This document shows positions 2,826 through 54,856 of a stretch of 64,000 bases of DNA, in pieces. This DNA is from Escherichia phage HX01. Position 1 is the first letter of the stretch. The number at the start of each line of letters is the position of its first letter. Made by a program: the position numbers and the translations under genes. The stretch lies in the sequence record NC_018855.1; one strand, written 5' to 3'. The notes below the pieces were generated by a model. That model made no database searches and had not been told where the DNA came from. It saw only the letters and a list, made by a program, of their open reading frames with translations.

Positions 2826-3350
2826 ATGTTAGTTTACCGCGTAGAACGTAGTTTTTGTACTCAACGTGAATCATTACCAGGAATTGCTATTGAAGACGGT
2901 AAAGCCGTCAGAATTTGGGAAACCTCTTGGAATAAAGAACCTCGCTCACCATACGGTTGGTCAGGCACCGACAACTCTGAAGAAACATGGGAGTTCCTTG
3001 ATAAACATGGAATACTCTCAGGTAACTTCTACCATCATGGCGACAACTATAATGTCCCTAATCGTCCTACAGTAAATGAAGACAAACTCCTTGAACAAAA
3101 TATCTTAAGATACTATAGAATTGAGCACACATTTGAATTGAGTGAAGATTGGGCTCAAGGGTTCTATTTTGGATTTGAAAGTGTTGACGCGGTTTATGCA
3201 TGGTTTGATGACCAGGTGGATGTTGAACTCCTGAAAGCTAAAGGATACTACATCGCCGTCTATGAAGCACCTGATTTCATCCTCGGAAGTTGTCAATTAA
3301 TGTTTAGACGTTCATTGGCAGAACAAGTTGATTTTATTTTGCTAAAATGA
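2826..3350 (+). CDS. Hypothetical early protein
   Basis: 174 aa ORF with strong RBS GAGGAGA 6 nt upstream and early promoter at 2771-2799. Confidence 0.55.
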   Translation: MLVYRVERSFCTQRESLPGIAIEDGKAVRIWETSWNKEPRSPYGWSGTDNSEETWEFLDKHGILSGNFYHHGDNYNVPNRPTVNEDKLLEQNILRYYRIEHTFELSEDWAQGFYFGFESVDAVYAWFDDQVDVELLKAKGYYIAVYEAPDFILGSCQLMFRRSLAEQVDFILLK

Positions 3351-15733: not shown

Positions 15734-15762
15734 GTTTACATGTGCTTCAAACATGATATTAT
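15734..15762 (+). promoter_or_regulatory. Early-type promoter (GTTTAC-17-TATTAT) with MotA-box-like GCTTCA
   Basis: Part of a repeated promoter-leader module. Confidence 0.55.
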
Positions 15763-15801
15763 AGACCTATCAAAACAAAACAACCAAATTGGAGAAATAA
15801 A

Positions 15802-16017
15802 ATGTCTAAAATGAAATTAACCCAAAACACAACTACTCGTTTTGGTAAAGTTAAACCTGGTATGAATGCTCCCCGTAAAGCACTTGTTGAAGAATTAAAT
15901 TTCTTAGAAGTTGAAATCAATTCTTTAGTGGTTCGCGGTTCAAATGGACATCGTTTAGAAAAGCTTCGTTCTAAAAAGGCAAAACTTATTGGCCTTATTA
16001 AAGAAATGAGTTTGTAA
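15802..16017 (+). CDS. Hypothetical basic protein
   Basis: 71 aa; driven by a copy of the motA promoter-leader module. Confidence 0.5.
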   Translation: MSKMKLTQNTTTRFGKVKPGMNAPRKALVEELNFLEVEINSLVVRGSNGHRLEKLRSKKAKLIGLIKEMSL

Positions 16018-16055: not shown

Positions 16056-16084
16056 GTTTACTTTTGCTTCAAACATGATATTAT
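16056..16084 (+). promoter_or_regulatory. motA promoter (GTTTAC-17-TATTAT)
   Basis: Second copy of the module; 38 nt upstream of motA ATG. Confidence 0.6.
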
Positions 16085-16121
16085 AGACCTATCAAAACAA
16101 ATACTAATTTGGAGAAATAAA

Positions 16122-16754
16122 ATGTCTAAAGTTACTTATATCATCAAAGCTTCTGAAAACGCTCTGAATGAAAAAACTGCTGCAATAATGGTTTATATCA
16201 TTAAGAACAACTTCACCACTGCTGCCAATGTCCGTGAAGCTCTGGAAGCGGAATACAATGCATCGGTTGTTAACTCTAACATTGGTGTATTGATTAAGAA
16301 AGGTTTAGTCGAAAAATCTGGTGATGGACTTATAGCAACAGGCGAAGCAATGGATATTATCCAAAAAGCTGCAGACCTCTTTGCCCAAGAAAATGCTCCA
16401 GAACTTCTTCAGAAACGTAACACTAGAAAAGCACGTGGAGTTACTCCTGAAATGCATGAATTAGCAAACTTTGTTTTTGAAAATATTAAAGATAAAGTTG
16501 AAGTTAAAGAAATTGGTGAAAACCGTAGTAACTTGGAAGTTCGATTTGCAAAACGAGTTCTAGGTATTCGTCAGATCGAAATTCGTCGAAATGGTTCTCT
16601 TAGAATCTTTGCATACAACATGTCAGAAACCGAATCAAAGCTGTTTACTTCTCTTGAAAATGATGTTAAGATTAAGATCGGTGGTAAATATACTTACATT
16701 GACTTCCCTAATGTGTCCAAAGAAATCATTACCCTTGTAACTAACGTACTGTGA
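16122..16754 (+). CDS. motA: Middle transcription activator MotA
   Basis: 210 aa; MSKVTYIIKAS...NSNIGVLIKKGLVEKSGDGLI matches T4 MotA (211 aa) from memory. Confidence 0.92.
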   Translation: MSKVTYIIKASENALNEKTAAIMVYIIKNNFTTAANVREALEAEYNASVVNSNIGVLIKKGLVEKSGDGLIATGEAMDIIQKAADLFAQENAPELLQKRNTRKARGVTPEMHELANFVFENIKDKVEVKEIGENRSNLEVRFAKRVLGIRQIEIRRNGSLRIFAYNMSETESKLFTSLENDVKIKIGGKYTYIDFPNVSKEIITLVTNVL

Positions 16755-38819: not shown

Positions 38820-39230
38820 ATGAAAGATATCGCCGCCGAATATTCCTTTATTAAATATACAGAATTGGAGCTATTAGAAGATGCAACAATTAAAACAGTT
38901 GATGTCCCTAATAAGAAAAATGTCATATATGCTATTGCTATAGATGACGAACTTGTGTATATTGGTAAAACCAAGAATTTAAAGAAACGCATTAACTATT
39001 ATCGAACAGCCATAAATCGAAAAGACCAGACTTCAGATTCAAGAAAATCACTTATGATTTTGGATGCCTTAATGCAAGGCAAAAAGGTTGAATTCTGGGC
39101 CCGCCAATGTTTTGACCTTTCAGTCACCAACGAACTTGGTTCAATGACCATCGCAACAATGGACCTTGAAGAACCGCTTTTTATCAAAAAGTTCAACCCG
39201 CCTTGGAATATCCAACATAAGAAAAAGTAG
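38820..39230 (+). CDS. denA: Endonuclease II (GIY-YIG family)
   Basis: 136 aa (T4 136 aa); ...VIYAIAIDDELVYIGKTKNLKKRINYYR... GIY-YIG-like core. Confidence 0.85.
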   Translation: MKDIAAEYSFIKYTELELLEDATIKTVDVPNKKNVIYAIAIDDELVYIGKTKNLKKRINYYRTAINRKDQTSDSRKSLMILDALMQGKKVEFWARQCFDLSVTNELGSMTIATMDLEEPLFIKKFNPPWNIQHKKK

Positions 39231-43974: not shown

Positions 43975-44002
43975 AACTCTACCAACAAATGAGGAAATAG
44001 AA

Positions 44003-44239
44003 ATGCTAAGTGAAAACCCAATTACAGTACACGAATTTCAGATTAAAGTAAAAGAATTTGCTCAAGCACTCATCAATAAAGTGTCTGAACGTTTCCAAGA
44101 TGCAACATTACGAGTTATTCAAGAATCTCCACGTTCTTTTCTCATAATCGTTAATCCTAAAGATGGTGACCAAATTACTAATCTTAAATTAGGCAGTGAT
44201 GGTCTTGTTGAAGCAACTCGAGTATATGGAACACTATAA
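44003..44239 (+). CDS. Hypothetical protein
   Basis: 78 aa; promoter 43945-43974; RBS GAGGAAA. Confidence 0.5.
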   Translation: MLSENPITVHEFQIKVKEFAQALINKVSERFQDATLRVIQESPRSFLIIVNPKDGDQITNLKLGSDGLVEATRVYGTL

Positions 44240-44359
44240 TGAGAGCTATCTCATTACTATCGAGAATGGTCATAAATCTGAGCACTACCAACTTAGCCTG
44301 TCTAATCCGGTTAAAGGTATTGTTGAATCAGAATCTGTTTATATCTCCTAAGGATTGTT

Positions 44360-45352
44360 ATGTTACCTGTCATCAGAAAACTTATTTCTCCAAAAGAACT
44401 GGCTGAGATTATTCCTTTGTCGGAAGCTTACGCATCACAAGTGGCTTCTCATCGCGAACAAGTTAATTCGATTATGAATGGTGAAGACCCACGCAAACTT
44501 ATTGTTGTAGGTCCTTGTTCAATTCATGACCCTATTGCTGCTGTTGAATACGGCAAACGTCTGGCTGAACTTCAAACTCGTCTTCCTAATGTTCTGTTAG
44601 TGATGCGCGTTTATTTTGAAAAGCCTCGAACTACCGTAGGTTGGAAAGGTCTTGTAAATGATCCATATCTTGACGGAAGTTTTGATATGAACCACGGTCT
44701 TATAGTTGCACGAACATTGTGTCGTAAACTTCTACGTATGGGACTTCCATTAGCAACTGAAGTATTAGACCCATTCACGATTAAGTATCTTTCTGGTATT
44801 TTCTCATGGGTTGCTATTGGCGCCCGTACGACTGAAAGTCAGACACATCGTGAAATTGCTTCAGGTCTACCGATGTGCGTAGGCTTCAAGAACGCAACCA
44901 ATGGTTCTATTAAAGTAGCTACAGACGCGATGTATAGTGCCGCCTGGCCTCATCGGTATATGGGTATGGACGTCGATGGTACTGTAGGCATTGTTGAAGC
45001 TGAAGGTAATCAGAATACGCATATCGTATTGCGTGGCGGGACTAACGGCCCGAACTATCATTCTTCTGATATTCAAGAAGCTTCTAACAAAGCAAGTGCA
45101 GTAGGTCTGAATCATTATGTAATGGTTGACTGTAGCCATGCAAACGCTGATGGGTATTATAGCAATCAAATTGGTATTGGTAAAAATTTAGCAGCTAATG
45201 ATTTGGTCAAAGGAATTATGATAGAATCATTCCTACATGAAGGAAATCAAAAAATTTCTGATAATATGTCCTATGGCGTTTCCGTTACCGATGCGTGCAT
45301 CGGTTGGGAACAAACTAAAGAGCTGTTAACTTATATTAATAAGGTTCAATAA
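44360..45352 (+). CDS. 3-deoxy-D-arabino-heptulosonate-7-phosphate (DAHP) synthase homolog, class I AroG/F/H-like
   Basis: 330 aa; motifs LIVVGPCSIHD, KPRTTVGWKGL, GARTTESQTHRE, VGFKNATNG, DCSHAN, IMIESFLHEGNQ, SVTDACIGWE align with E. coli AroG active-site segments; RBS AAGGA. Confidence 0.85.
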   Translation: MLPVIRKLISPKELAEIIPLSEAYASQVASHREQVNSIMNGEDPRKLIVVGPCSIHDPIAAVEYGKRLAELQTRLPNVLLVMRVYFEKPRTTVGWKGLVNDPYLDGSFDMNHGLIVARTLCRKLLRMGLPLATEVLDPFTIKYLSGIFSWVAIGARTTESQTHREIASGLPMCVGFKNATNGSIKVATDAMYSAAWPHRYMGMDVDGTVGIVEAEGNQNTHIVLRGGTNGPNYHSSDIQEASNKASAVGLNHYVMVDCSHANADGYYSNQIGIGKNLAANDLVKGIMIESFLHEGNQKISDNMSYGVSVTDACIGWEQTKELLTYINKVQ

Positions 45353-45933
45353 TGAAAGCTAGCACATATCTTCAAATTGCTTATTTGATTTCTCAAGAAT
45401 CAAAATGTTGTTCATGGAAAGTTGGTGCCGTCATTGAAAAAGATGGACGCATTATCTCTACTGGATATAATGGCTCACCCGCAGGTGGCGTTAACTGTTG
45501 TGAACATGCATCCGAAAATGGTTGGTTGAAGAATAAACCAAGCCCGGTCATCGTTGCTGGACATAAAGAAGGCACTACAGCATTTGGACGGGCAGATAAT
45601 TTTGTTTTGGCTAAAGAACATCGGGCCGCTCATAGTGCATGGTCTGCTAATAATGAAATCCATGCAGAATTGAATGCAATTTTGTTTGCAGCTCGTAAAG
45701 GTAATTCTATTGAAGGTGCTACGTTATATACTACGCTTTCTCCATGTCCTGATTGCACTAAAGCTATTACGCAGTCAGGTATTAAAAAGGTTGTATACGC
45801 AGAATTATACGATCGATCTCCTGAAAATTGGGCAGACATTCTAAAACAAGCCGGTATTGAAGTAATTCAGTACTCTCGTAATAATCTTCGTTCTCTGAAT
45901 TGGGAACAAATCCGAAACTTTTGTGGTGAATAA
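45352..45933 (+). CDS. cd: dCMP deaminase
   Basis: 193 aa (T4 193 aa); zinc motifs HAELNA and PCPDC. Confidence 0.92.
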   Translation: MKASTYLQIAYLISQESKCCSWKVGAVIEKDGRIISTGYNGSPAGGVNCCEHASENGWLKNKPSPVIVAGHKEGTTAFGRADNFVLAKEHRAAHSAWSANNEIHAELNAILFAARKGNSIEGATLYTTLSPCPDCTKAITQSGIKKVVYAELYDRSPENWADILKQAGIEVIQYSRNNLRSLNWEQIRNFCGE

Positions 45934-45934
45934 T

Positions 45935-46231
45935 ATGATTTTAACTGAACAAGAAACTATGGTTCTTCGTGAACGTATTAAAACTATTCTGTCTGTAGGC
46001 GTTCATTGTGTTGTATTTGAAAAGGCTAACGGCGAGGTACGCACTATGTTTGCTTCGCGCGATGAACTTGAAGTCAAATATGAAAATAACAATCCAGCAA
46101 CAGAAGTTCGTTATGAACCTCGTGAATCAGTTCGAGCATTCGATACCAAGTTAGGCCAGTGGCGTTCTTTCCGCCTTGATAAAGTAATTTCGGTTGATGG
46201 TACTCCGGCGGAACGTTTGCTTCTTATGTAA
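45935..46231 (+). CDS. Hypothetical protein
   Basis: ORF track 45923-46231 (GTG start); ATG at 45935 used. Confidence 0.5.
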   Translation: MILTEQETMVLRERIKTILSVGVHCVVFEKANGEVRTMFASRDELEVKYENNNPATEVRYEPRESVRAFDTKLGQWRSFRLDKVISVDGTPAERLLLM

Positions 46232-46258
46232 TATGCTTTACGAATAGTATGGTATTAT
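46231..46258 (+). promoter_or_regulatory. Putative MotA-box middle promoter upstream of gene 31
   Basis: ATGCTTTA, 12-nt spacer, then TATTAT. Confidence 0.35.
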
Positions 46259-46288
46259 TAATCTATCGTCAAACAACAAGGAAATAAG

Positions 46289-46621
46289 ATGTCTGAAGTA
46301 CAACTCCCAATTCGTGCTGTTGGTGAATATGTCATTCTGGTTTCTGAACCCGCTCAAGCAGGTGATGAAGAAGTTACAGAATCAGGACTTGTGATTGGTA
46401 AACGTGTTCAAGGTGAAGTTCCTGAACTATGTGTAGTTCATTCTGTAGGTCCTGATGTTCCTGAAGGTTTTGTTGAAGTCGGTGATTTGACTCCACTACC
46501 AGTTGGACAAATTCGAAATGTTCCACATCCATTTGTGGCTTTGGGACTTAAACAACCTAAAGAAATTAAACAGAAATTCGTAACATGCCACTATAAAGCT
46601 ATTCCGTGTCTTTATAAGTGA
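46289..46621 (+). CDS. 31: gp31 co-chaperonin (GroES analogue)
   Basis: 110 aa; [21 protein letters not shown]... matches T4 gp31 (111 aa). Confidence 0.92.
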
Positions 46622-46629
46622 TATAAATA
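46622..46629 (+). promoter_or_regulatory. Possible late promoter (TATAAATA) between 31 and rIII
   Basis: TATAAATA on + strand 117 nt upstream of rIII. Confidence 0.3.
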
Positions 46630-46745
46630 ACTATATGAAGAGAACACTCTTCTAAGCGGTAGCCTACAACTGAGAGACTTGTCGAAAGAAGGTGAAATTC
46701 AGACGAACGTGGCTACTAAATATTATCTCGAATTGAGAATTTAAA

Positions 46746-46994
46746 ATGATTAAACAATTACAACACGCTCTTGAACTGCAACGAAACGCATGGAATAACG
46801 GTCACGAAAACTACGGTGCGTCAATTGATGTTGAAGCCGAAGCACTGGAAATCCTGCGATATTTCAAACATCTGAATCCTGCTCAGGCTACTCTGGCTTC
46901 TGAACTGGAAGCTAAAGATGAATTGAAATATGCTAAGCCTCTGGCTTCTGCAGCACGCAAAGCAGTTCGTCATTTTGTTATTACCCTGAAGTAA
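46746..46994 (+). CDS. rIII: rIII lysis inhibition accessory protein
   Basis: 82 aa (T4 rIII 82 aa); position downstream of gene 31. Confidence 0.75.
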   Translation: MIKQLQHALELQRNAWNNGHENYGASIDVEAEALEILRYFKHLNPAQATLASELEAKDELKYAKPLASAARKAVRHFVITLK

Positions 46995-47256
46995 GTTAAA
47001 TCGAGGAGCCGTCGAATTGTCTGATTATCGATTTGCGAATCGGTATGTTTTAGAAGTACCGCCCCGACAATTTTACGGTGTACCTCTTGAATGTTACTAT
47101 CATGCGTCAGAAAAGTGTTATCTGTGTAAGTCTTGGTGGTATGATGACGAGGTTTATGGTTATCCTGTCGTTAAATATCCAAAACCTATGTTCCCCTTGA
47201 GGGCTTGAGCAGGCAATGTCAATAAGTCCTGCATTTTCATTTAAAGAGAATTTATA

Positions 47257-47436
47257 ATGGCAAAACAAGCTAAAGCAAAGAAAGCAGTTGAAAAGAAAGT
47301 TGATGGTACCTCTAAACGCGCTGGATACAAGCGTGGGTCGAACTCTCGTATTAATCAAACAGTTGAGAAGATCATGCGCAGAGCACGTGCAGTTCTTCGA
47401 GATGATGCTTCTCGTTTTGGAAAGGTTGTTGCATAA
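47257..47436 (+). CDS. Small Lys/Arg-rich protein (59 aa)
   Basis: Below ORF-track cutoff; MAKQAKAKKAVEKKVDGTSKRAGYKRGSNSRINQ...; followed by UUCG hairpin terminator. Confidence 0.4.
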   Translation: MAKQAKAKKAVEKKVDGTSKRAGYKRGSNSRINQTVEKIMRRARAVLRDDASRFGKVVA

Positions 47437-47441
47437 TTTTA

Positions 47442-47464
47442 GGGAGACTTCGGTCTCCCTTTTG
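47442..47464 (+). terminator. Intrinsic terminator after small basic ORF
   Basis: GGGAGACTTCGGTCTCCC plus TTTT; stem identical to 32489-32506. Confidence 0.8.
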
Positions 47465-47496
47465 TGCGTTTAGGGCAGAAAAAGTTTAAAAAAGAT

Positions 47497-47525
47497 GTTT
47501 ACTCTCCTGTAGGATGTGTTACTAT
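47497..47525 (+). promoter_or_regulatory. Early-type promoter (GTTTAC-17-TACTAT)
   Basis: GTTTACTCTCCTGTAGGATGTGTTACTAT. Confidence 0.5.
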
Positions 47526-47566
47526 AGACTTGTACCACCTAATCAATAAAACAATCGGAGAATAAA

Positions 47567-47935
47567 ATGAAAATCAATCTGAACTCATACATCAAATGTA
47601 AAGACCACGACGGTTATAAAGCTATCGAAATTAAAGAATTCCAGTGGATGTTATACAAAGAGCAATTTGAGTTCGTAGGTTGTATGACCCCTGAAGGTCC
47701 TTCAGATGATTTCTCTTGGAAAATTGTGCTAGCAAACTTTTTCACAGGTGACACATATGAATTAAAAACTATTATTACCGGTAAAATTCGTTCAGAAACA
47801 TATGTTGACGAAGAAACTGGTTACTCTGAAGATGTTACATGGTATCAAAATGGACGCATTACAGCAGATAACCTGATCGAAAAAATGAAAGCCAAAGGTG
47901 TTTTAAATTTAGACAATTGGATTAAAGTTGCATAA
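47567..47935 (+). CDS. Hypothetical protein
   Basis: 122 aa; promoter 47497-47525; RBS GGAGAA. Confidence 0.55.
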   Translation: MKINLNSYIKCKDHDGYKAIEIKEFQWMLYKEQFEFVGCMTPEGPSDDFSWKIVLANFFTGDTYELKTIITGKIRSETYVDEETGYSEDVTWYQNGRITADNLIEKMKAKGVLNLDNWIKVA

Positions 47936-47939
47936 AACA

Positions 47940-47969
47940 GTTTACTTTGGTACAGGTTATGTTATTATA
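47940..47969 (+). promoter_or_regulatory. Early-type promoter (GTTTAC-18-TATTAT) inside a 9-bp perfect inverted repeat
   Basis: GGTACAGGT (47949-47957) and ACCTGTACC (47971-47979) flank the -10. Confidence 0.55.
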
Positions 47970-48009
47970 GACCTGTACCAACAAACAACTTAAACATCTG
48001 GAGAATAAA

Positions 48010-48375
48010 ATGAACTACACCAACTTCGAACGCAAATATGTTTCTAACGGTATCGCTGGTTCTATCGATATGGTTTGTTTGTGGAAGCATAAAAATGGTT
48101 CAGTATGTGAAATTGAGCAGTGCATGACTCCTAATTATGTTTATATGCGATTTGAAAATGGCATCACGGTTTCAATCACGACGGAAGGTTCAAATTTTAA
48201 AATTGCATTAGATGATGATTTCCGTCAGCGTGATTTAGGTACTCATCCTTGCTGGAACGGCGTTAATCGTAAACTTCTGGTTAAAACTTGGATTCGTCAT
48301 ATCCTGAGTAACCGAGCTAAACCTGAACATCTCGAAGCAATCTTTGATGTAGTTCTTAACGAATTCGATATCTAA
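48010..48375 (+). CDS. Hypothetical protein
   Basis: 121 aa; promoter 47940-47969; RBS GGAGAA; followed by GC hairpin. Confidence 0.55.
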   Translation: MNYTNFERKYVSNGIAGSIDMVCLWKHKNGSVCEIEQCMTPNYVYMRFENGITVSITTEGSNFKIALDDDFRQRDLGTHPCWNGVNRKLLVKTWIRHILSNRAKPEHLEAIFDVVLNEFDI

Positions 48376-48382
48376 TTTAACT

Positions 48383-48398
48383 GGGAGCTTCGGCTCCC
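48383..48398 (+). other. GC hairpin with UUCG loop, no T-run (RNA stability or processing element?)
   Basis: GGGAGCTTCGGCTCCC directly before RBS of ORF 48411. Confidence 0.4.
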
Positions 48399-48410
48399 AC
48401 TGAGGAAATT

Positions 48411-49025
48411 ATGTTTAAAGTTAATACTTTTTATAAAATGAATTTTAAAAATGGGGATATTACTCCACGCCTTAAAAACATGTTCTCATATGACCTTATC
48501 GAGCCTTTTGAAGTTTTAGAAGTTACTGATGCCGGCTCGGTTTGTGAAATTAGAACTTCTGAAGGTAAAATTTATCAGGCAGGTGTTGGTAAATTTAGTA
48601 ATTGTTTTACTTTAATATTCTCGACCGATTTAGATGAGCATTTTATTGAATGTCCTAGCCCTAAGGTCTACGAAGTTCCACATCAAGAAACTAAGAAAAA
48701 TGGCCCACACGAATATACGAAGGTTGAAACTCCTCATGGCGTGATGTGGCGTCATAACTCTCCTTTTGGAAGTAAAGGAACATTTGCTCAACCGTCTAAA
48801 CCGTATGATGATGAAAAATACATCGTCGTCTTTTTATCTGAACAGGGTACTCAAGACCGTGGATGCCAACGAAGTGGTTTACTAAGTGAACTTGAAGCTC
48901 ATAACCAAGCACGTGAATTCGTTGAGAAAAATCCTGGTTCTGAAGCTCTAGTCATGAAAGCAATTACTCAATATATCACTGCTCAACCTGTTGTTCATCC
49001 GGTAGAAATTAATTTCGTTAAGTAG
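48411..49025 (+). CDS. Hypothetical protein
   Basis: 204 aa; RBS GAGGAAA. Confidence 0.55.
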   Translation: MFKVNTFYKMNFKNGDITPRLKNMFSYDLIEPFEVLEVTDAGSVCEIRTSEGKIYQAGVGKFSNCFTLIFSTDLDEHFIECPSPKVYEVPHQETKKNGPHEYTKVETPHGVMWRHNSPFGSKGTFAQPSKPYDDEKYIVVFLSEQGTQDRGCQRSGLLSELEAHNQAREFVEKNPGSEALVMKAITQYITAQPVVHPVEINFVK

Positions 49026-49053
49026 TTTACATCCAAGGACGGATTAGAGTATA
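49024..49053 (+). promoter_or_regulatory. Early-type promoter (GTTTAC-18-TATAAC)
   Basis: Spacer CATCCAAGGACGGATTAGAG resembles promoters at 1253 and 1811. Confidence 0.5.
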
Positions 49054-49079
49054 ACGATTTCTTTAGTAAGTGGAAAAAT

Positions 49080-49277
49080 ATGAAATTTTTAATAGCACAA
49101 ACAGTCCAATTAAAAGGTGTTGGAATTCCTGGGGTGATTTTTAAAGTTCTCCCTGAATTTAAAACCGCCGCTGGAATTATCAATGAAGCGTATGCTGTTC
49201 AATGGGTTGATTGGACTTCTGACATACGTATGGGTAAAGAGTTATCTCCTATTAAAGGGTTGAAACATGTTGAATAA
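49080..49277 (+). CDS. Hypothetical protein
   Basis: 65 aa; promoter 49024-49053. Confidence 0.5.
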   Translation: MKFLIAQTVQLKGVGIPGVIFKVLPEFKTAAGIINEAYAVQWVDWTSDIRMGKELSPIKGLKHVE

Positions 49278-49479
49278 ATTAATCCAGAAATTGTTAGGTA
49301 CAGAAATGGTTGAAGTTACGTATCGTGTGACTGACTGCTCGCCTATTCATCCACAGGATGAACCATTTATCAAGACAATTAAAATGCTTAAAAACGATGG
49401 TGGTTTATCTATTGAAGACCGTCTGCCTAGTTACGGTCATTGGGCTGATGTTGAAATTATAAGTGTTAAAGATGTCTGA
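49267..49479 (+). CDS. Hypothetical protein
   Basis: 70 aa overlapping neighbours. Confidence 0.5.
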   Translation: MLNKLIQKLLGTEMVEVTYRVTDCSPIHPQDEPFIKTIKMLKNDGGLSIEDRLPSYGHWADVEIISVKDV

Positions 49480-49930
49480 ATTAGAAATAAGAAGCAATTT
49501 CAAATGGCCGTCATGCGCATTAAGTAATTTCGCCCAATGGCCTTTTGTTATGGATGGTATTCAATTCGGAGGACTTGAAGGATTTCTCCAAGGATGTAAG
49601 GTGAAAAACGTTGAACAACAAAAACGTATATTTGGGTTGTCTGGATTGGCTGCACAGCAAGCTGGAAGGTCTTATGCAAGAGCTCAGGACCGTGGGACTC
49701 TCTTCTGGTTAGGAGTTCCATTTTCAAGATACTCTGAAGCGTGGAAAGAATTATACACAAATGCATATTTTGAAGCCGCGATCCAAAACAAGGGGTTTCG
49801 TGATGCCTTACAAGCCTCTAAAGGAAAAATTTTGAAGCACAGCATGGCCAGCCACCTAACAAAAGATGATACAATATTAACCGAAGCTGAATTTATTGAT
49901 GTGTTAAACCTATTAAGAGACTCTTTATGA
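49472..49930 (+). CDS. NADAR (YbiA/DUF1768)-like protein
   Basis: ORF track 49463-49930 (GTG); ATG 49472 used; segment ALSNFAQWPFVMDGIQFGGLEGFLQGCK resembles the NADAR signature (SNF..PF..DG..F...E.FQA.K). Confidence 0.45.
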   Translation: MSELEIRSNFKWPSCALSNFAQWPFVMDGIQFGGLEGFLQGCKVKNVEQQKRIFGLSGLAAQQAGRSYARAQDRGTLFWLGVPFSRYSEAWKELYTNAYFEAAIQNKGFRDALQASKGKILKHSMASHLTKDDTILTEAEFIDVLNLLRDSL

Positions 49931-50763
49931 AACCTACTATTTTGACTGATATTGATGGTGTATGTTTAAGCTGGCAATCTGGACTTCCTTATTTTGCCCA
50001 AAAATATAATCTTCCATTAGAACATATTTTAAAAATGATTCAGGACGAAAAATTTATTTCTCCTGGTAAACTATTCAATACCGACGATGACCTCGGTAAA
50101 CAATTAATAGAAAAATATAATCGCTCTGATTTTATTCGTTACTTAGCGCCTTATTCGGATGCTCTTCGAGTTATCAATAAACTAAAAGAAGACTATAATT
50201 TTGTAGCCGTGACGGCGCTAGGTGATTCAATTGATGCTCGATTGAATAGACAATTTAATTTGAATGCTTTGTTCCCAGGCGCTTTCTCTGAAGTAATGAT
50301 GTGTGGTCATGATTCTTCAAAGGAACAATTATTCGAACTAGCTAAAACAAAATATAACGTGATTTGTTACGTTGACGATTTAGCTCATCACTGTGACCAT
50401 GCAGCAGAAATTCTTAATGTACCGATTTATTGGTTGGCTCGTGGTGAACGTGATGATATTCCTCGCACTGCACAACGTGTACACACGTGGGATGATATTG
50501 AATCTCGTTTGGTTCTACCAGAGCATAATTCAGATTCAGATCGTGAAGACCTTTTAAAACGATTGGCGGATTTGCTTAAAGAATCTGGTGCAACAAGTCC
50601 AGGTGCATGGCCTAATCAAATTGGCGCTCCGTCGAATCCGTACACCTGGCGAACTCCAGGACCAACCGATATGCTGCCTCATTGGCGATACACTAATGTA
50701 GGCGAACATCCTGTTCCTCCGTATTGGGCAGTTCCACAAGGTTACGGCACAACTAAGGGTTAA
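49927..50763 (+). CDS. HAD-superfamily hydrolase-like protein
   Basis: 278 aa; N-terminal LTDIDGV (HAD motif I) and YVDD (motif IV); equivalent to T4 30.2 region. Confidence 0.55.
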   Translation: MKPTILTDIDGVCLSWQSGLPYFAQKYNLPLEHILKMIQDEKFISPGKLFNTDDDLGKQLIEKYNRSDFIRYLAPYSDALRVINKLKEDYNFVAVTALGDSIDARLNRQFNLNALFPGAFSEVMMCGHDSSKEQLFELAKTKYNVICYVDDLAHHCDHAAEILNVPIYWLARGERDDIPRTAQRVHTWDDIESRLVLPEHNSDSDREDLLKRLADLLKESGATSPGAWPNQIGAPSNPYTWRTPGPTDMLPHWRYTNVGEHPVPPYWAVPQGYGTTKG

Positions 50764-50765
50764 TT

Positions 50766-51035
50766 ATGTTTGTAGTTCATGATATTACAGATGGCAAAAA
50801 CACCACACGTGACTACGGTCACGTTAACATGTTCTTTCGAGACTGGCCATTGTTTCGTTCAGTAAAAGACGCAGAAATATTTAAAGAGTGTGTTGAACAA
50901 GGGTTCATCTACATTTCAGAATACTATGTTGAAGGACTCGGTAAATGGATTACCACTTATCAGAAAACGCTGAAATCGCTTCTAGATGAAGTGGCTTATA
51001 ATAGAACCGTAACCAAAATCGAGGACATCAAATGA
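50766..51035 (+). CDS. Hypothetical protein
   Basis: 89 aa directly upstream of ligase. Confidence 0.5.
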   Translation: MFVVHDITDGKNTTRDYGHVNMFFRDWPLFRSVKDAEIFKECVEQGFIYISEYYVEGLGKWITTYQKTLKSLLDEVAYNRTVTKIEDIK

Positions 51036-52525
51036 TTTTAGATATTTTAAACCAAATAGCTGCGATCGGTTCTACTAAAACAAAACAAGAAATCCTTAAG
51101 AAAAATAAGGACAACAAATTACTTGAACGTGTGTATCGTTTAACATATGCACGTGGTATCCAGTATTATATTAAGAAATGGCCAGGACCAGGTGAAAGGT
51201 CTCAAGCGTATGGTCTTCTTGAATTAGATGACATGTTGGATTTTATTGAGTTCACATTAGCCACTCGTAAACTCACTGGTAATGCTGCAATTAAAGAGCT
51301 CATGGGTTATATCGCTGACGGTAAACCTGATGATGTAGAAGTCCTTCGTCGTGTAATGATGCGAGACCTTGAAGTAGGTGCTTCAGTGTCTATCGCGAAT
51401 AAGGTGTGGCCTGGACTTATTCAATTGCAACCACAGATGTTAGCATCTGCATATGATGAGAAATTGATTACTAAAAATATTAAATGGCCCGCATTTGCCC
51501 AATTAAAAGCAGATGGTGCTCGTTGTTTCGCTGAAGTTCGCGATGATGGTGTTCAATTCTTTTCTCGTGCCGGTAATGAATACCATGGTCTTACTCTATT
51601 AGCTGATGAACTAATGGAAATGACTAAAGAAGCTCGTGAAAGACACCCTAATGGGGTTTTAATCGACGGTGAATTAGTTTATCATTCATTTGATATTAAA
51701 AAGGCTGTGAGCTCAGGAAATGACCTGTCGTTCTTATTTGGTGATAATGAAGAATCCGAAGAAGTACAAGTTGCAGACCGTAGCACTTCAAATGGTTTAG
51801 CAAATAAATCTCTTCAAGGGACTATTTCTCCTAAAGAAGCGGAAGGTATGGTTCTTCAAGCCTGGGACTATGTTCCTTTAGATGAAGTCTATTCTGATGG
51901 CAAAATTAAAGGTCAGAAATACGATGTTCGTTTTGCTGCTCTTGAAAATATGGCTGAAGGCTTTAAGCGAATTGAGCCAATTGAAAATCAGTTAGTTCGT
52001 AATCTTGACGAAGCTAAAGTGGTTTATAAAAAATATGTTGACCAAGGTCTTGAAGGTATTATCCTTAAAAACCGTGATTCATACTGGGAAAACAAACGCT
52101 CTAAGAACCTAATTAAATTTAAAGAAGTTATTGATATCGCTTTAGAAGTTGTAGGATACTATGAACACTCTAAAGACCCTAACAAATTAGGTGGTGTCGA
52201 ACTCGTATCACGTTGTCGTCGTATTACAACCGATTGTGGTTCAGGGTTTAAAGATACAACTCATAAAACAGTTGATGGTGTAAAGGTTCTTATTCCTTTA
52301 GATGAGCGTCATGATTTGGACCGTGAACGATTAATGACCGAAGCTCGTGAAGGTAAATTGATTGGACGTATTGCTGATTGTGAATGCAATGGTTGGGTTC
52401 ATTCTAAAGGACGTGAAGGCACTGTAGGTATTTTCCTTCCAATTATTAAAGGGTTCCGTTTTGATAAAACAGAAGCGGATTCGTTTGAAGACGTATTTGG
52501 ACCGTGGTCCCAGACAGGTTTATAA
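51032..52525 (+). CDS. 30: ATP-dependent DNA ligase
   Basis: 497 aa; MILDILNQIAAIGSTKTKQEILKKNKDNKLLERVYRLTY... and adenylation motif LKADG match T4 gp30. Confidence 0.95.
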   Translation: MILDILNQIAAIGSTKTKQEILKKNKDNKLLERVYRLTYARGIQYYIKKWPGPGERSQAYGLLELDDMLDFIEFTLATRKLTGNAAIKELMGYIADGKPDDVEVLRRVMMRDLEVGASVSIANKVWPGLIQLQPQMLASAYDEKLITKNIKWPAFAQLKADGARCFAEVRDDGVQFFSRAGNEYHGLTLLADELMEMTKEARERHPNGVLIDGELVYHSFDIKKAVSSGNDLSFLFGDNEESEEVQVADRSTSNGLANKSLQGTISPKEAEGMVLQAWDYVPLDEVYSDGKIKGQKYDVRFAALENMAEGFKRIEPIENQLVRNLDEAKVVYKKYVDQGLEGIILKNRDSYWENKRSKNLIKFKEVIDIALEVVGYYEHSKDPNKLGGVELVSRCRRITTDCGSGFKDTTHKTVDGVKVLIPLDERHDLDRERLMTEAREGKLIGRIADCECNGWVHSKGREGTVGIFLPIIKGFRFDKTEADSFEDVFGPWSQTGL

Positions 52526-52713
52526 TGAAAGCTTATTTAGAAACAGTTATTGTAGCTAAGAAGGATGGTGGAGATGTTTCCACCTCTTGCTCTCAGATTA
52601 TATTAGATTTTCCTAATGAAAATTCGTATCGGGTTTTCGTAGATAACGTTAATGGGTACGAAAAAGGCCCTAATTTTGAAGTTTATCGTACTTTGCTCCC
52701 GATTGTGGATTAA
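52525..52713 (+). CDS. Hypothetical protein
   Basis: ORF track 52504-52713; ATG 52525 overlaps ligase stop; followed by terminator. Confidence 0.45.
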   Translation: MKAYLETVIVAKKDGGDVSTSCSQIILDFPNENSYRVFVDNVNGYEKGPNFEVYRTLLPIVD

Positions 52714-52733
52714 GAGCCTTCGGGCTCTTTTTG
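52713..52733 (+). terminator. Intrinsic terminator upstream of alt
   Basis: AGAGCCTTCGGGCTCT plus TTTT. Confidence 0.7.
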
Positions 52734-52768
52734 GCATAAATATAAATTATTACTAAAAGGAAAACACT

Positions 52769-54856
52769 ATGTCTGAACAATTAAATGAAGTGTTTGAATC
52801 TGAAGGCAGTCTTCCTGTCGTCAATTTGAACCCTAAAGCTAAAGTTCCACAAGTCTGGAAAATTGGTGATATCGATACAAACATCGTAGTTCGCTTATTC
52901 TCTTACCTTTCTGAAGGCGATGCTGTAAAACAAGTTAAACTTGGCGACAAATACGCTCATGTTGTTATTATGAGTCTGTCTGAAAAGGGTAATCTCGCTG
53001 AATTGAAAAATGGCCTTGGTCCTGCTCCTATTGATGCAATCAACACCATTTTCAATACAGTATATGAACAGGTTAAAGCTCTTCGTATGGATGCAGTTCT
53101 GTTCCGATTCCCTACCAAGAAATTGAAAGGACGTGGACAACAACTTCAAACTCTTCTTGCTCGTTTAGTTTCTACTAAAACCGGTGGACGTTTTAAAGTA
53201 TTGTCGGCAATGTATCAATTCACAGGTAAACACACCTATGTGATGATGGTTCGTAAAAATGCCAACATTGACGATATTAAAGGCATCCCTAACATTAACA
53301 CAGAGTTGTACACGAAAGTAGATTCTGATGTTGGTGAAGTTTATGTGAGTAAAAAGACCGGCGAAACGGTCACCAAAGAAACGGCTATCGCTGGTTCTAT
53401 TGCTGCTGTAGAAGAAAAACGTAAAGATAAGCCTGTTATTGCTCGTACTAAAATTTCTCGTCGTGCTATTGCAGCAAGTCAATCTTTAGAAGCTGACCGT
53501 CAAGAAGGTGAGTTATTCCAGAAATACGAAAATTCTGCTAAAGAAGTTAGTGGCCCAGCTACAGCCGAATTACTTCCTGAAGCATATGAAATCGTACTAG
53601 CCCAAGCATCGTCCACAGCAAAAGGCACTTTAGTTGCTGATATCGAAAATAAGATTTATAATCGTATTGATGAATCCTTTAGATTTGCTGATGAAGTTTC
53701 TTATGGTAGTGTTATTAAGCCAACTTTAGAAAAGTTTGCTAAGAAAATTAAAACTGAAAAAACAACATCTGTTAAAGCATTAGCTGCTTTTGTTGAAGCT
53801 GCAAATGAAATTGCAGACTCTATTAAAGACGAATGGTTTGAAGATTTTAGACGTGATAATTTCCAACTGGCTGACGACGTTTTAGCTGAAGTATCTGAAA
53901 AAACTTGGAAACAACGTAAATCAGCGTTCTTGTCTAATGTGATGTATACTTATGCACGAGAATCGGCTAGAGGCACCTTTAATATAACAATGAATCGGGA
54001 CCCTAAACAATACTCTGTTGCTGAAAAACGAGCTATTCGTGAATATGCCTCTTCTGCGTATACCGATATCAATAATATGTTGTTAGGTCGTTATAAACCA
54101 GATTTTTACGATGTTGCAGATGAAGATGAAGTTAAACGCGCTATTGATGGTCTTGATTCGGCGTTCTTAAATGGAGACCGTTTACCTGAAGGACTAACGT
54201 TATATAGAGCTCAGTCTATCAGAATGCCTATTTACGAAGCAATGGTTAAAAATAAGGTATTCTACTTCAGAAACTATGTTTCCACTTCACTAGCTCCTAT
54301 TATTTTCGGTGGGTTTAAAGAGAACGTTGCCCTTGGACTTGCTCCTGAAGAAGTTCGCAAAGAGCTTAACATTGACAATAATGACGAAGGTGTTACTATT
54401 TCTCCTAGTCAAGTAAGAACAGCTATGCATGCACCAGACCAAATCCGTGTTAACGTTGGATGGGCTATTGATGGCGCCCATAAAGTTAACGTGATTTATC
54501 CTGGACAGTTGAGTAATCACCCTAATGAGCAAGAAATTATTTTGCCTAGAGGCATTCTCTTGCAGATAAATAAAATTACGGATGCGTCATCTGACACTGG
54601 TGCAGGTTTAGAATCCAACCTTAAATTTATTCAAGCTGAAGTTATGTCCTCAGACCAGTTGGACGAAGCTGTCATTTACGATGGTGATGTTCTCATGGAA
54701 ACAGGTGAGGTGGTTGCTATGACTGGTGAAATCGAATCAGATGAACCGATATCGTTCTCTTCATTTGTAGAAAAAACTAGTGCTCCTAAAGGATTGAAAT
54801 TGTTAGCATCTTTAATGGATTTAGAATCAGTTCCGTTTAAATTTGTCCAAGGATAG
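52769..54856 (+). CDS. alt: Alt, packaged ADP-ribosyltransferase
   Basis: 695 aa (T4 Alt 682 aa); position downstream of gene 30. Confidence 0.8.
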   Translation: MSEQLNEVFESEGSLPVVNLNPKAKVPQVWKIGDIDTNIVVRLFSYLSEGDAVKQVKLGDKYAHVVIMSLSEKGNLAELKNGLGPAPIDAINTIFNTVYEQVKALRMDAVLFRFPTKKLKGRGQQLQTLLARLVSTKTGGRFKVLSAMYQFTGKHTYVMMVRKNANIDDIKGIPNINTELYTKVDSDVGEVYVSKKTGETVTKETAIAGSIAAVEEKRKDKPVIARTKISRRAIAASQSLEADRQEGELFQKYENSAKEVSGPATAELLPEAYEIVLAQASSTAKGTLVADIENKIYNRIDESFRFADEVSYGSVIKPTLEKFAKKIKTEKTTSVKALAAFVEAANEIADSIKDEWFEDFRRDNFQLADDVLAEVSEKTWKQRKSAFLSNVMYTYARESARGTFNITMNRDPKQYSVAEKRAIREYASSAYTDINNMLLGRYKPDFYDVADEDEVKRAIDGLDSAFLNGDRLPEGLTLYRAQSIRMPIYEAMVKNKVFYFRNYVSTSLAPIIFGGFKENVALGLAPEEVRKELNIDNNDEGVTISPSQVRTAMHAPDQIRVNVGWAIDGAHKVNVIYPGQLSNHPNEQEIILPRGILLQINKITDASSDTGAGLESNLKFIQAEVMSSDQLDEAVIYDGDVLMETGEVVAMTGEIESDEPISFSSFVEKTSAPKGLKLLASLMDLESVPFKFVQG

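Follow-up and report, generated by a model that had tools for sequence, protein, structure and literature searches.

Probable PeSL-type early gene cassettes between rIII and gene 30 of Escherichia phage HX01

Genes between rIII and gene 30

The window analysed here is a stretch of 64,000 nucleotides from Escherichia phage HX01 (NC_018855.1), a T4-like Mosigvirus of the RB69/JS09 type with 98.9% identity to phage JS09. Its genes identify the locus around positions 47497–49053 as the rIII-to-gene-30 hyperplastic region known from T-even phages, a stretch of accessory genes that reaches from rIII to the DNA ligase gene, and synteny comparison shows that gene order and identity match T4 genes 30.9 to 30. 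All genes and elements of this region described below lie on the + strand. The upstream border of the region is the lysis-inhibition accessory gene rIII (46746–46994), which is 93% identical to T4 rIII and annotated as such in ATK47 and NBG1. It is followed by a conserved spacer of 262 nt, which folds no better than shuffled sequence, and by gene 30.9 (47257–47436, 59 aa; 96% identity to T4 30.9, phrog_1427 at 2.4e-31), which occupies the place directly upstream of the locus that the original prediction had given to rIII. The next four ORFs, whose coordinates in that prediction are all correct, encode gp30.8 (47567–47935, 122 aa), gp30.7 (48010–48375, 121 aa), a 204-aa protein in the gene 30.6 slot (ORF204, 48411–49025) and a homologue of gp30.5 (49080–49277, 65 aa; 64% identity to T4 30.5, phrog_1690). 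The overlapping ORFs 30.4 (49267–49479) and 30.3 (49472–49930 from its ATG; PF08010) come next, with 30.2, 30.1 and the ligase gene 30 downstream. The order rIII-30.9-30.8-30.7-...-30.2 is retained in about 43 loci on the maps of relatives, and an Rfam search of positions 44000–53000 returned nothing meaningful. When the region is compared with T4 30.9 to 30.3, the gene order, the terminator after 30.9, the promoters before 30.8 and 30.7 and the hairpin after 30.7 are all the same, but identity of the 30.8 allele drops to 37% and T4 30.6 is replaced by ORF204 and a decayed promoter. The architecture is already known and is ordinary for RB69/JS09-type T4-like phages.

The gp30.8 protein matches PF06019 (Phage_30_8) at 6.7e-44, with 149.2 bits against a gathering cut-off of 25, and gp30.7 matches PF06919 (Phage_T4_Gp30_7) at 3e-51, with 172.5 bits against a cut-off of 27. 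gp30.7 is 93% identical to its T4 counterpart and is found in 995 phage records. Identity of gp30.8 is 37% to T4, 57% to AV113 and 87–90% to Dhakavirus and Gaprivervirus, and at least three deeply divergent allele classes (37–57% identity) are swapped at the repeat borders described below among Mosigvirus, Dhakavirus and Tequatrovirus. The protein is also present in Phapecoctavirus. Comparative genomics and structure prediction had been suggested as checks on the locus; the former revealed variable content and the latter gave confident AF2 models of gp30.8 (pLDDT 94.6; all-beta with a C-terminal helix) and gp30.7 (pLDDT 82.6), but no structural neighbour for either. The best Foldseek hits against the PDB had E values of 0.27 and 0.15, respectively, both with TM scores of at most 0.28, and in BFVD the gp30.8 model retrieved solely uncharacterised members of its own family. 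PDB sequence searches with 30.8, 30.7 and ORF204 gave nothing significant. Paralogy of 30.8 and 30.7 was considered and rejected, as profile-profile comparison shows no relation between them, and the CMTP and GSVCEI strings common to both were therefore treated as chance.

ORF204 is limited to Mosigvirus, with 119 phage records (112 of them full length); among 5.8e9 proteins it makes up a single cluster at 90% identity. It has no Pfam match and was assigned to phrog_17531. Two domains can be distinguished, an N-terminal one (about residues 1–85) and a C-terminal one (about residues 90–195) of the '30.6A' family, and the HMMER representatives match either the C-domain (P0063–P0066) or the N-domain (P0068). 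On sequence grounds ORF204 is a two-domain chimera, unrelated to T4 30.6 (95 aa, phrog_2153).

Promoters, stem-loops and ribosome-binding sites

T4-type sigma-70 early promoters of the form GTTTAC-N17-TAnTAT precede 30.8 (promoter 1, 47497–47525) and 30.7 (promoter 2, 47940–47968), each 73 nt 5' of the ATG, and are kept at orthologous positions in five genera. For the wider pattern GTTTAC-N16-18-TAnnnT the window has 19 matches, 18 of them on the + strand, against 3.2 ± 2.0 in shuffled sequences, an enrichment of about six-fold that none of 100 shuffles reaches. A generic sigma-70 scan of the region was uninformative, with 26 sites and no enrichment over the 23.5 expected. In the third GTTTAC element (49025–49055) the spacer is 19 nt long and the -10 box reads TATAAC, which places it outside the promoter pattern; it is a degenerate early-promoter remnant, at best weak. 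It was seen solely in loci that carry ORF204; T4 and AV113 have no promoter at this point, their 30.6 stop and 30.5 start codons overlapping as TAATG. A resemblance to the promoter at 1253 of the window was also observed. The proposal that the four ORFs are individually promoted thus holds for two of them (at 47497 and 47940), the copy at 49025 being degenerate and ORF204 having no promoter of its own.

Downstream of 30.9, the tetraloop hairpin AGGGAGAC-UUCG-GUCUCCCU (47441–47460; -14.1 kcal/mol, z -2.95) is GC-rich and passes directly into UUUUGUG, as in a Rho-independent terminator (47441–47466). A consensus terminator scan missed it because the stem runs into the T run. The hairpin and T-run are orthologous in T4, SP18, IME08 and pKp20, where the stems differ in a compensatory manner, and the terminator is annotated in ATK47 and NBG1. 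The junction element after 30.7 (48382–48408) consists of the hairpin UGGGAGC-UUCG-GCUCCCA (48382–48399; -13.1 kcal/mol, z -3.3) and the block TGAGGAAA (48401–48408), so that the hairpin leads directly into the SD of ORF204; it is followed by CUGAGGAAAUUAUG and not by a U tract, and does not conform to a Rho-independent terminator. Across 14 diverse orthologues of this junction, compensatory changes affect three of the five consensus pairs, and TGAGGA never varies. The same combination of hairpin and TGAGGAAA stands before at least 10 different downstream ORFs in relatives, the hairpins of orthologues also use GAAA, UUCA, UACG and UUUG loops, and the junction elements are kept across five genera, their stems changing in a compensatory way. 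Both GC hairpins of HX01 share the CUUCGG loop closure of the C(UUCG)G hairpins that Tuerk et al. reportedly described in 1988 in intercistronic regions of T4, with no notable difference. The GC hairpins of the original prediction are thus real and stable, both with z of about -3, but the individual termination that it read from them was not borne out: a true terminator follows 30.9 only, the U tract is missing from the hairpin after 30.7, and no hairpin was found after ORF204. With two of the four ORFs having their own promoter and a single true terminator, the units are in part individually promoted, and they are not individually terminated.

The sole stem-loop after 30.8 (47947–47981; -19.5 kcal/mol, z -3.4 in read-through RNA) is interleaved with promoter 2, with a 5' arm from the promoter spacer and a 3' arm from the leader, and it encloses the -10 box. 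Complementarity between spacer and leader, assessed by a permutation test, is maintained in at least seven different sequence versions among 30.7 orthologues, between which loop sizes and arm positions vary; in two of these the spacer pairs with the SD instead. A promoter within a hairpin, which implies that only RNA initiated upstream can fold, is also found where the SD is sequestered in T4 e, soc, 49 and I-TevI (PMC3014915), and the pairing of spacer with SD in several 30.7 orthologues and at the window promoter at 2771 is a further likeness. In contrast to those T4 genes, which have late promoters, the promoters here are early, and in HX01 28 nt separate the end of the 30.7 hairpin from the ATG, the SD being left uncovered.

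Exactly three copies of the 13-mer GGAGAATAAAATG are present in the window, where 0.18 would be expected, and two of them are at this locus. The nearly identical ribosome-binding contexts noticed earlier are genuine and lie at 47557 and 48000, 2 nt away from the 47555 and 47998 given for them. The SD common to both, GGAGAATAAAA (47557–47567 and 48000–48010), is the published optimal cleavage site of RegB/S1, for which an 11-nt consensus GGAGRAYARAA with the optimum GGAGAAUAAAA has been described in single-stranded RNA, usually at the SD of early genes (PMC1702504). As at the sites in T4 early mRNAs, both HX01 copies are exact optima before early genes and are predicted to be single-stranded, the leader having an MFE of 0. 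ORF204 and 30.5 have no such site. The regB gene is absent from the 64-kb window; Mosigvirus LF82-3, a phage with the same ORF204 locus, has a RegB of 77.5% identity. No report of RegB cleavage at the 47557 and 48000 sites was found in the literature consulted.

Repeat units and recombination breakpoints

The promoter, leader and SD of 30.8 and of 30.7 belong to a 91-nt direct repeat whose two copies are 74% identical, lie 443 nt apart and flank 30.8. Unit 1 (47481–47571) comprises an A-rich stretch, a GTTTAC -35 box (47497–47502), an extended -10 box TGtTACTAT (47517–47525), a leader, GGAGAATAAAA and the ATG at 47567. Unit 2 (47924–48014) has its -35 GTTTAC at 47940–47945, its -10 TATTAT at 47963–47968, the stem-loop at 47947–47981, the SD at 48000–48010 and the ATG at 48010. 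[quoted passage not shown] 2010, PMC2839356; Comeau et al. 2014, PMC4122927). The PeSL promoter of the T4/PST type, TTTACW-N17-TAYWAT, is present at 47497 and 47940 and missing at 49025. The hairpin at 47441–47460 lies 36 nt 5' of the first -35 box and that at 47947–47981 encloses the second -10 box, AAAAAGTTTAAAAAAGAT is found 5' of the first promoter, and both units end in GGAGAATAAAATG. Published PeSLs are also repeated in tandem in hyperplastic regions, on either side of small ORFs that are not essential, with indel and replacement crossovers within the elements; the 91-nt repeat, the breakpoints and deletion described next and the locus maps give the same picture here. PeSLs have been described in RB49/phi1, PST/T4 and nt-1/KVP40 and not at this Mosigvirus locus, which has in addition a second, promoter-less type of junction, the tetraloop hairpin with TGAGGAAA, that shows the same behaviour. 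Lambdoid phage morons are similar in being single accessory ORFs with their own promoter and terminator, but do not have conserved repeated flanking elements that mediate movement (PMC2839356).

In AV113 the 30.8 allele is swapped, and the limits of the swap coincide exactly with the two units: identity to the window stops at 47570 and restarts at the GTTTAC at 47940. The IMG/VR contig L039 carries a 1014-bp deletion relative to L038, with flanks that are 98.7% and 98.1% identical, and the crossover lies inside GGAGAATAAAA (CGGAGAATAAAA), in a 12-nt block common to two non-allelic units 1 kb apart, indicating ectopic recombination between repeats and not allelic exchange. Swaps of the 30.8 allele and of the gene in the 30.6 slot fall exactly at regulatory junctions, and the locus maps show that cassette content varies among relatives. 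The 30.8 allele and the 30.6 slot bear out the expectation of variable cassettes, but 30.9 and 30.7 are strongly conserved relative to T4. Recombination between the units flanking 30.8 is predicted to release a 443-bp mini-circle; PeSL mini-circles have been demonstrated by experiment in RB49 and phi1.

Taken together, it is highly likely that the locus represents PeSL-type early cassettes in a T-even (Mosigvirus) hyperplastic region.

Alternative readings, expression and possible functions

That these are accessory genes in a variable region, as first proposed, is supported by the hyperplastic locus, its differing content, the swaps at junctions, the T4 orthologues, with early RNA and early protein documented for 30.4 to 30.8 (PMC9697503), and T4 30.5, which is dispensable and can be deleted (bioRxiv 10.1101/2024.12.17.629029). 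The possibility that all the ORFs are conserved core genes with housekeeping functions was examined and does not apply. An anti-defence role, which had also been suggested, found no such support. In an anti-defence island the cassettes would encode immune inhibitors, and an arms race against the defences of the host would lie behind the swapping of 30.8 and of the 30.6-slot gene. In keeping with this, the T4 orthologues are expressed early, at least three divergent 30.8 allele classes are exchanged between genera, ORF204 is restricted to one genus and T4 30.5 interacts with the bNACHT11 defence. However, no known defence or anti-defence family was matched in Pfam, PHROGs (function), NCBIfam, PADLOC, PDB sequences or Foldseek, the gp30.8 and gp30.7 models have no structural neighbour, 30.7 and 30.9 scarcely differ between HX01 and T4, and T4 30.5 binds the host polyphosphate kinase (Ppk) and triggers bNACHT11, with no inhibition reported (bioRxiv 10.1101/2024.12.17.629029). 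We consider such an island unlikely, if worth weighing.

A plain early operon with internal promoters, whose junctions serve expression only and in which breakpoints coincide with them by survivorship, viable phages arising solely from exchanges at gene borders, without any special cassette mobility, is quite improbable. Such an operon would agree with the backbone kept in about 43 loci and with the short homology that suffices for T4 recombination (PMC2839356), but it does not account for the L039 crossover between non-allelic units, the same junctions before at least 10 unrelated ORFs or the mini-circles of RB49 and phi1. The palindrome at promoter 2 (TTGGTACAGGTT / GACCTGTACCAA), an inverted repeat that brackets the -10 box, could in principle serve a dimeric repressor of 30.7 as its DNA operator; this is very improbable, as the arm sequences are wholly different among 30.7 orthologues while their complementarity is kept in at least seven versions, two of which pair the spacer with the SD, a pattern that fits a nucleic-acid structure and not a sequence-specific protein site. 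Chance promoter and ribosome-site matches in AT-rich DNA, which the generic scan taken by itself would allow, are already refuted by the strand-biased excess of the T4-specific pattern (19 against 3.2, reached in 0 of 100 shuffles) and its orthologous positions in five genera.

For the PeSL-type cassettes, promoter use, RegB cutting and the roles of the stem-loops in HX01 are inferred from work on T4, RB49 and RB69. The terminator after 30.9 would insulate the region from upstream transcription, and, by analogy with T4, host RNA polymerase would fire both promoters as soon as the cell is infected. RNA started at the first promoter would read through 30.8 and fold the stem-loop, as judged from T4 probably an attenuator or stabiliser, over the second promoter, and would go on into 30.7, then ORF204 and the overlapping series of genes from 30.5 to 30. 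Minutes later, if T4 is a guide, RegB would cut GG^AG in the GGAGAAUAAAA SDs and end translation of 30.8 and 30.7. The 91-nt repeat and the hairpin-SD unit would act as patches of homology through which single ORFs are swapped, deleted and inserted between phages, and the encoded proteins are probably dispensable early host-interaction factors, one of which has a homologue (T4 30.5) that binds Ppk. More tentatively, gp30.8 and ORF204 might be host-range or immune determinants, either anti-defence or sensor-escape variants, and the early-promoter stem-loops might gate read-through against local RNA; if so, the gates would bring to early cassettes a mechanism known from the late genes e, soc and 49 of T4.

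The finding fits the framework already described for T4 early promoters, PeSL elements and RegB shut-off, and the view of this phage group is therefore unchanged. Its practical value lies in candidates for functional screens, namely the hyper-allelic gp30.8 with no structural neighbour, the one-genus chimera ORF204 and the homologue of gp30.5, the Ppk-binding trigger of bNACHT11, and the locus offers clean natural cases of cassette exchange and deletion at regulatory repeats.

Gene map of the rIII-to-gene-30 region

The 2.3 kb around the cassette chain shares 98.9% identity with Escherichia phage JS09, and many other Mosigvirus (RB69-like) phages match it at 96–98%. A gene map built from annotated relatives and comparison with T4 gives the order cd (45352–45933), 31.1 (45923–46231), 31 (46289–46621), rIII (46746–46994), 30.9 (47257–47436), 30.8 (47567–47935; PF06019, E 6.7e-44), 30.7 (48010–48375; PF06919, E 3e-51), a 204-aa ORF in the gene 30.6 slot (ORF204, 48411–49025; phrog_17531 the sole family match), 30.5 (49080–49277; phrog_1690), 30.4 (49267–49479), and 30.3 (49472–49930), with 30.2, 30.1, and ligase gene 30 downstream. 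The ORF coordinates of the original prediction are right; its placement of rIII beside the chain is wrong by one gene, the abutting gene being 30.9.

A DAHP synthase gene (44360–45352; PF00793, 1.5e-74), an aromatic-amino-acid pathway gene found in Mosigvirus phages, lies directly upstream of cd. Several public annotations look wrong (30.9 as "glycogen branching enzyme GH-13," 31.1 as "tail fibers protein," 30.7 as "baseplate hub subunit"), and in AV113 (locus L005, 3874–4194) the annotated 30.6 start falls within the hairpin, and the SD-preceded ATG lies 33 nt downstream of it. The 262-nt non-coding spacer between rIII and 30.9 (46995–47256) keeps 86–100% identity with T4 outside an indel block at ∼47094–47150. 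A mechanical ORF within it (47017–47208, TTG start) is broken in T4, and a small hairpin, TATCGATT-TGCG-AATCGGTA (47026–47045), shows compensatory changes relative to T4. The spacer gave no Rfam match and its whole-region fold was no better than shuffles.

Promoters, hairpins, and leaders

The window contains 19 matches to the pattern GTTTAC-N16-18-TAnnnT compared with 3.2 ± 2.0 in shuffles, with 18 of the 19 on the + strand, among them the promoters at 47497 and 47940, both with an extended −10 box, TGtTAnTAT. Enrichment was absent in a generic sigma-70 scan; the promoter signal resides in the T4-specific consensus. With its 19-nt spacer and TATAAC, the motif at 49025 does not fit the T4-type pattern. 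The hairpin after 30.9 (47441–47460, −14.1 kcal/mol), followed by UUUUGUG, is a terminator. That after 30.7 (48382–48399, −13.1 kcal/mol) runs directly into CUGAGGAAAUUAUG without a U tract, and no hairpin-like fold was found 3' of ORF204 (z −0.34). The proposal of individually promoted units therefore stands for two promoters and not for the third motif, and "individually terminated" is overstated. The proposed near-identity of the RBS contexts is borne out, as GGAGAATAAAATG occurs exactly 3 times in the window compared with 0.18 expected, with two copies here, at 47557 and 48000. Overall, the observation is largely real.

Comparison with T4, SP18, IME08, ABTNLsp5, AV113, and pKp20 covered five genera. 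Across these, the elements stand at matching positions: a CUUCGG terminator follows 30.9, with stems that differ yet are complementary, early promoters precede 30.8 and 30.7, both ending in GGAGAATAAAATG, and a tetraloop hairpin plus TGAGG follows 30.7. In 14 diverse junctions the latter hairpin keeps five consensus pairs, three of them with compensatory double changes, and TGAGGA is invariant; at least 10 different ORFs lie downstream of this hairpin-SD junction, including T4-type 30.6, ORF204, and a phrog_8920 protein.

The two promoter units (47481–47571 and 47924–48014) form a 91-nt direct repeat, 443 nt apart and 74% identical without gaps; in both, the distance between GTTTAC and ATG is exactly 73 nt. 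The leaders from both promoters are predicted to be unstructured (MFE 0, less folded than 200/200 shuffles). Read-through RNA from 30.8 is predicted to form a stem-loop (47947–47981, −19.5 kcal/mol, z −3.4) with the second-promoter spacer as its 5' arm and the initial 12 nt of the leader from that promoter as its 3' arm. This complementarity is kept as contiguous 9–14-bp stems in at least seven unrelated sequence versions of the 30.7 promoter, in two of which the spacer's partner is the GGAG SD, and the mean stem is 10.6 bp compared with 6.1 ± 0.33 for shuffled leaders. Promoters directly after a terminator (the first promoter here and that of L039, a member of an IMG/VR contig pair) are without it. 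Taken over all 16 early promoters of the window, the mean spacer-leader complementarity is 7.19 bp versus 5.53 bp when cross-paired, with 0/5000 permutations reaching the observed mean, and the best spacer-internal palindromic stems sum to 65 versus 49.4 ± 3.3 expected.

Short inverted repeats inside the 17-nt spacer include CAACCA-AGGA-TGGTTG at 1253 and ACCACAA-GGA-TTGTGGT at 39230. These repeats match the stem-loop placement reported for the promoter-early stem-loop (PeSL) cassettes of RB49 and phi1 (PMC2839356); since Arbiol et al. state that PeSL stem-loops lie most commonly between −35 and −10 or overlapping −10 (PMC2839356), the trait is already known. At the early promoter 2771–2830, a 13-bp complementarity links the spacer TTCTCCTCTGGTT to AACCAGAGGAGAA, which is the SD of the driven gene, and sequestration of this ribosome site would be possible only in read-through RNA. 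A tandem near-identical promoter-leader-SD pair (15734–15805 and 16056–16125), ending in GGAGAAATAAAATG and with a small ORF between, indicates that the window has this cassette layout outside the rIII–30 region as well.

Cassette exchange

Protein identity to T4 switches sharply from gene to gene along the locus, at 96% for 30.9, 37% for 30.8, 93% for 30.7, 64% for 30.5, 46% for 30.4, and 96% for 30.3, with the 30.6 slot unrelated. Compared with the Mosigvirus AV113, the DNA is ∼100% identical as far as the ATGAA of 30.8 (47570), falls to 52–78% in the 30.8 ORF, and regains identity at the G of GTTTAC 47940 through 30.7. AV113 then carries a T4-type 30.6 in place of ORF204 and is without 30.4, with identity back at 30.3. 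The swapped 30.8 allele and 30.6-slot gene support the proposed accessory genes in a variable region. The nearest relatives of the window's 30.8 allele (87–90%) are in Dhakavirus and Gaprivervirus phages, and two 30.8 allele classes are present in Dhakavirus. Of two Jiaodavirus-like contigs, one is without a 1014-bp segment in which the other has 30.8 and a phrog_5804 ORF, flanked by 98.7% and 98.1% identity; the crossover lies inside CGGAGAATAAAA, common to the two promoter units, and the event is an ectopic repeat recombination, as the PeSL model predicts.

The C-terminal ∼80 codons of 30.2 (50500–50760) diverge sharply among otherwise near-identical Mosigvirus genomes (34–74% nucleotide identity over 50650–50750), which suggests a swapped C-terminal module. 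Some Tequatrovirus genomes (R5505, Lutter, SHFML-11, SP1, F1) carry ∼150 extra bases and a small ORF in the 30.9–30.7 segment relative to T4, which adds a further indel to this cassette chain.

Encoded proteins and expression

The gp30.8 model is confident (pLDDT 94.6), with a beta-rich body and a single C-terminal helix; it has no PDB neighbor and matches only uncharacterized family members in BFVD. Phage records with the gene number 1036, Phapecoctavirus among them. Homologues at ∼40% identity in Stephanstirmvirinae, outside the T4 family (e.g. locus L009, OZ035728, Phapecoctavirus 536P1, 3001–3348), imply transfer between phage families. The gp30.7 model (pLDDT 82.6; seven strands, two helices) has no structural neighbor, and profile comparison found no link to gp30.8. 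A predicted 154-aa ENA metagenome protein (P0052) combines PF08010 (30.3) with PF06919 (30.7), being either a fusion or an assembly/gene-calling artifact. ORF204 is found in 119 phage records only and forms one cluster among 5.8 billion proteins. In exhaustive HMMER searches its C-terminal half matches the "30.6A" family, of which SP18 too has a member, and its N-terminal half matches separate relatives; the N-domain also weakly matches PHROGs in neighboring slots of Klebsiella phages. ORF204 is a chimera. T4 30.5, to which gp30.5 is 64% identical, can be deleted; the T4 protein co-purifies with host Ppk and is an activator of the bNACHT11 defense (bioRxiv 10.1101/2024.12.17.629029). NCBIfam and PADLOC gave no match for any ORF of the locus.

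The identical RBS is exactly the single-stranded 11-mer GGAGAAUAAAA, the efficient RegB/S1 target (PMC1702504), present in the rIII–30 locus at 30.8 and 30.7 only. No RegB gene was found in the 64-kb window; RegB has matches in 1136 phage records, among them Mosigvirus LF82-3, which also carries ORF204. T4 30.4–30.8 are classed as early at both the RNA and protein level (PMC9697503 supplements), and by analogy with T4 the promoters and RegB sites would function in this phage.

This layout corresponds to the PeSL and T4 early-promoter organization already published for hyperplastic regions (PMC2839356; PMC4122927), and its novelty is low. The genes are supported as accessory and exchangeable, and an anti-defense role is hypothesized. 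Of use are the by-products: a set of candidate genes, and clear-cut cases of exchange mediated by the junctions.
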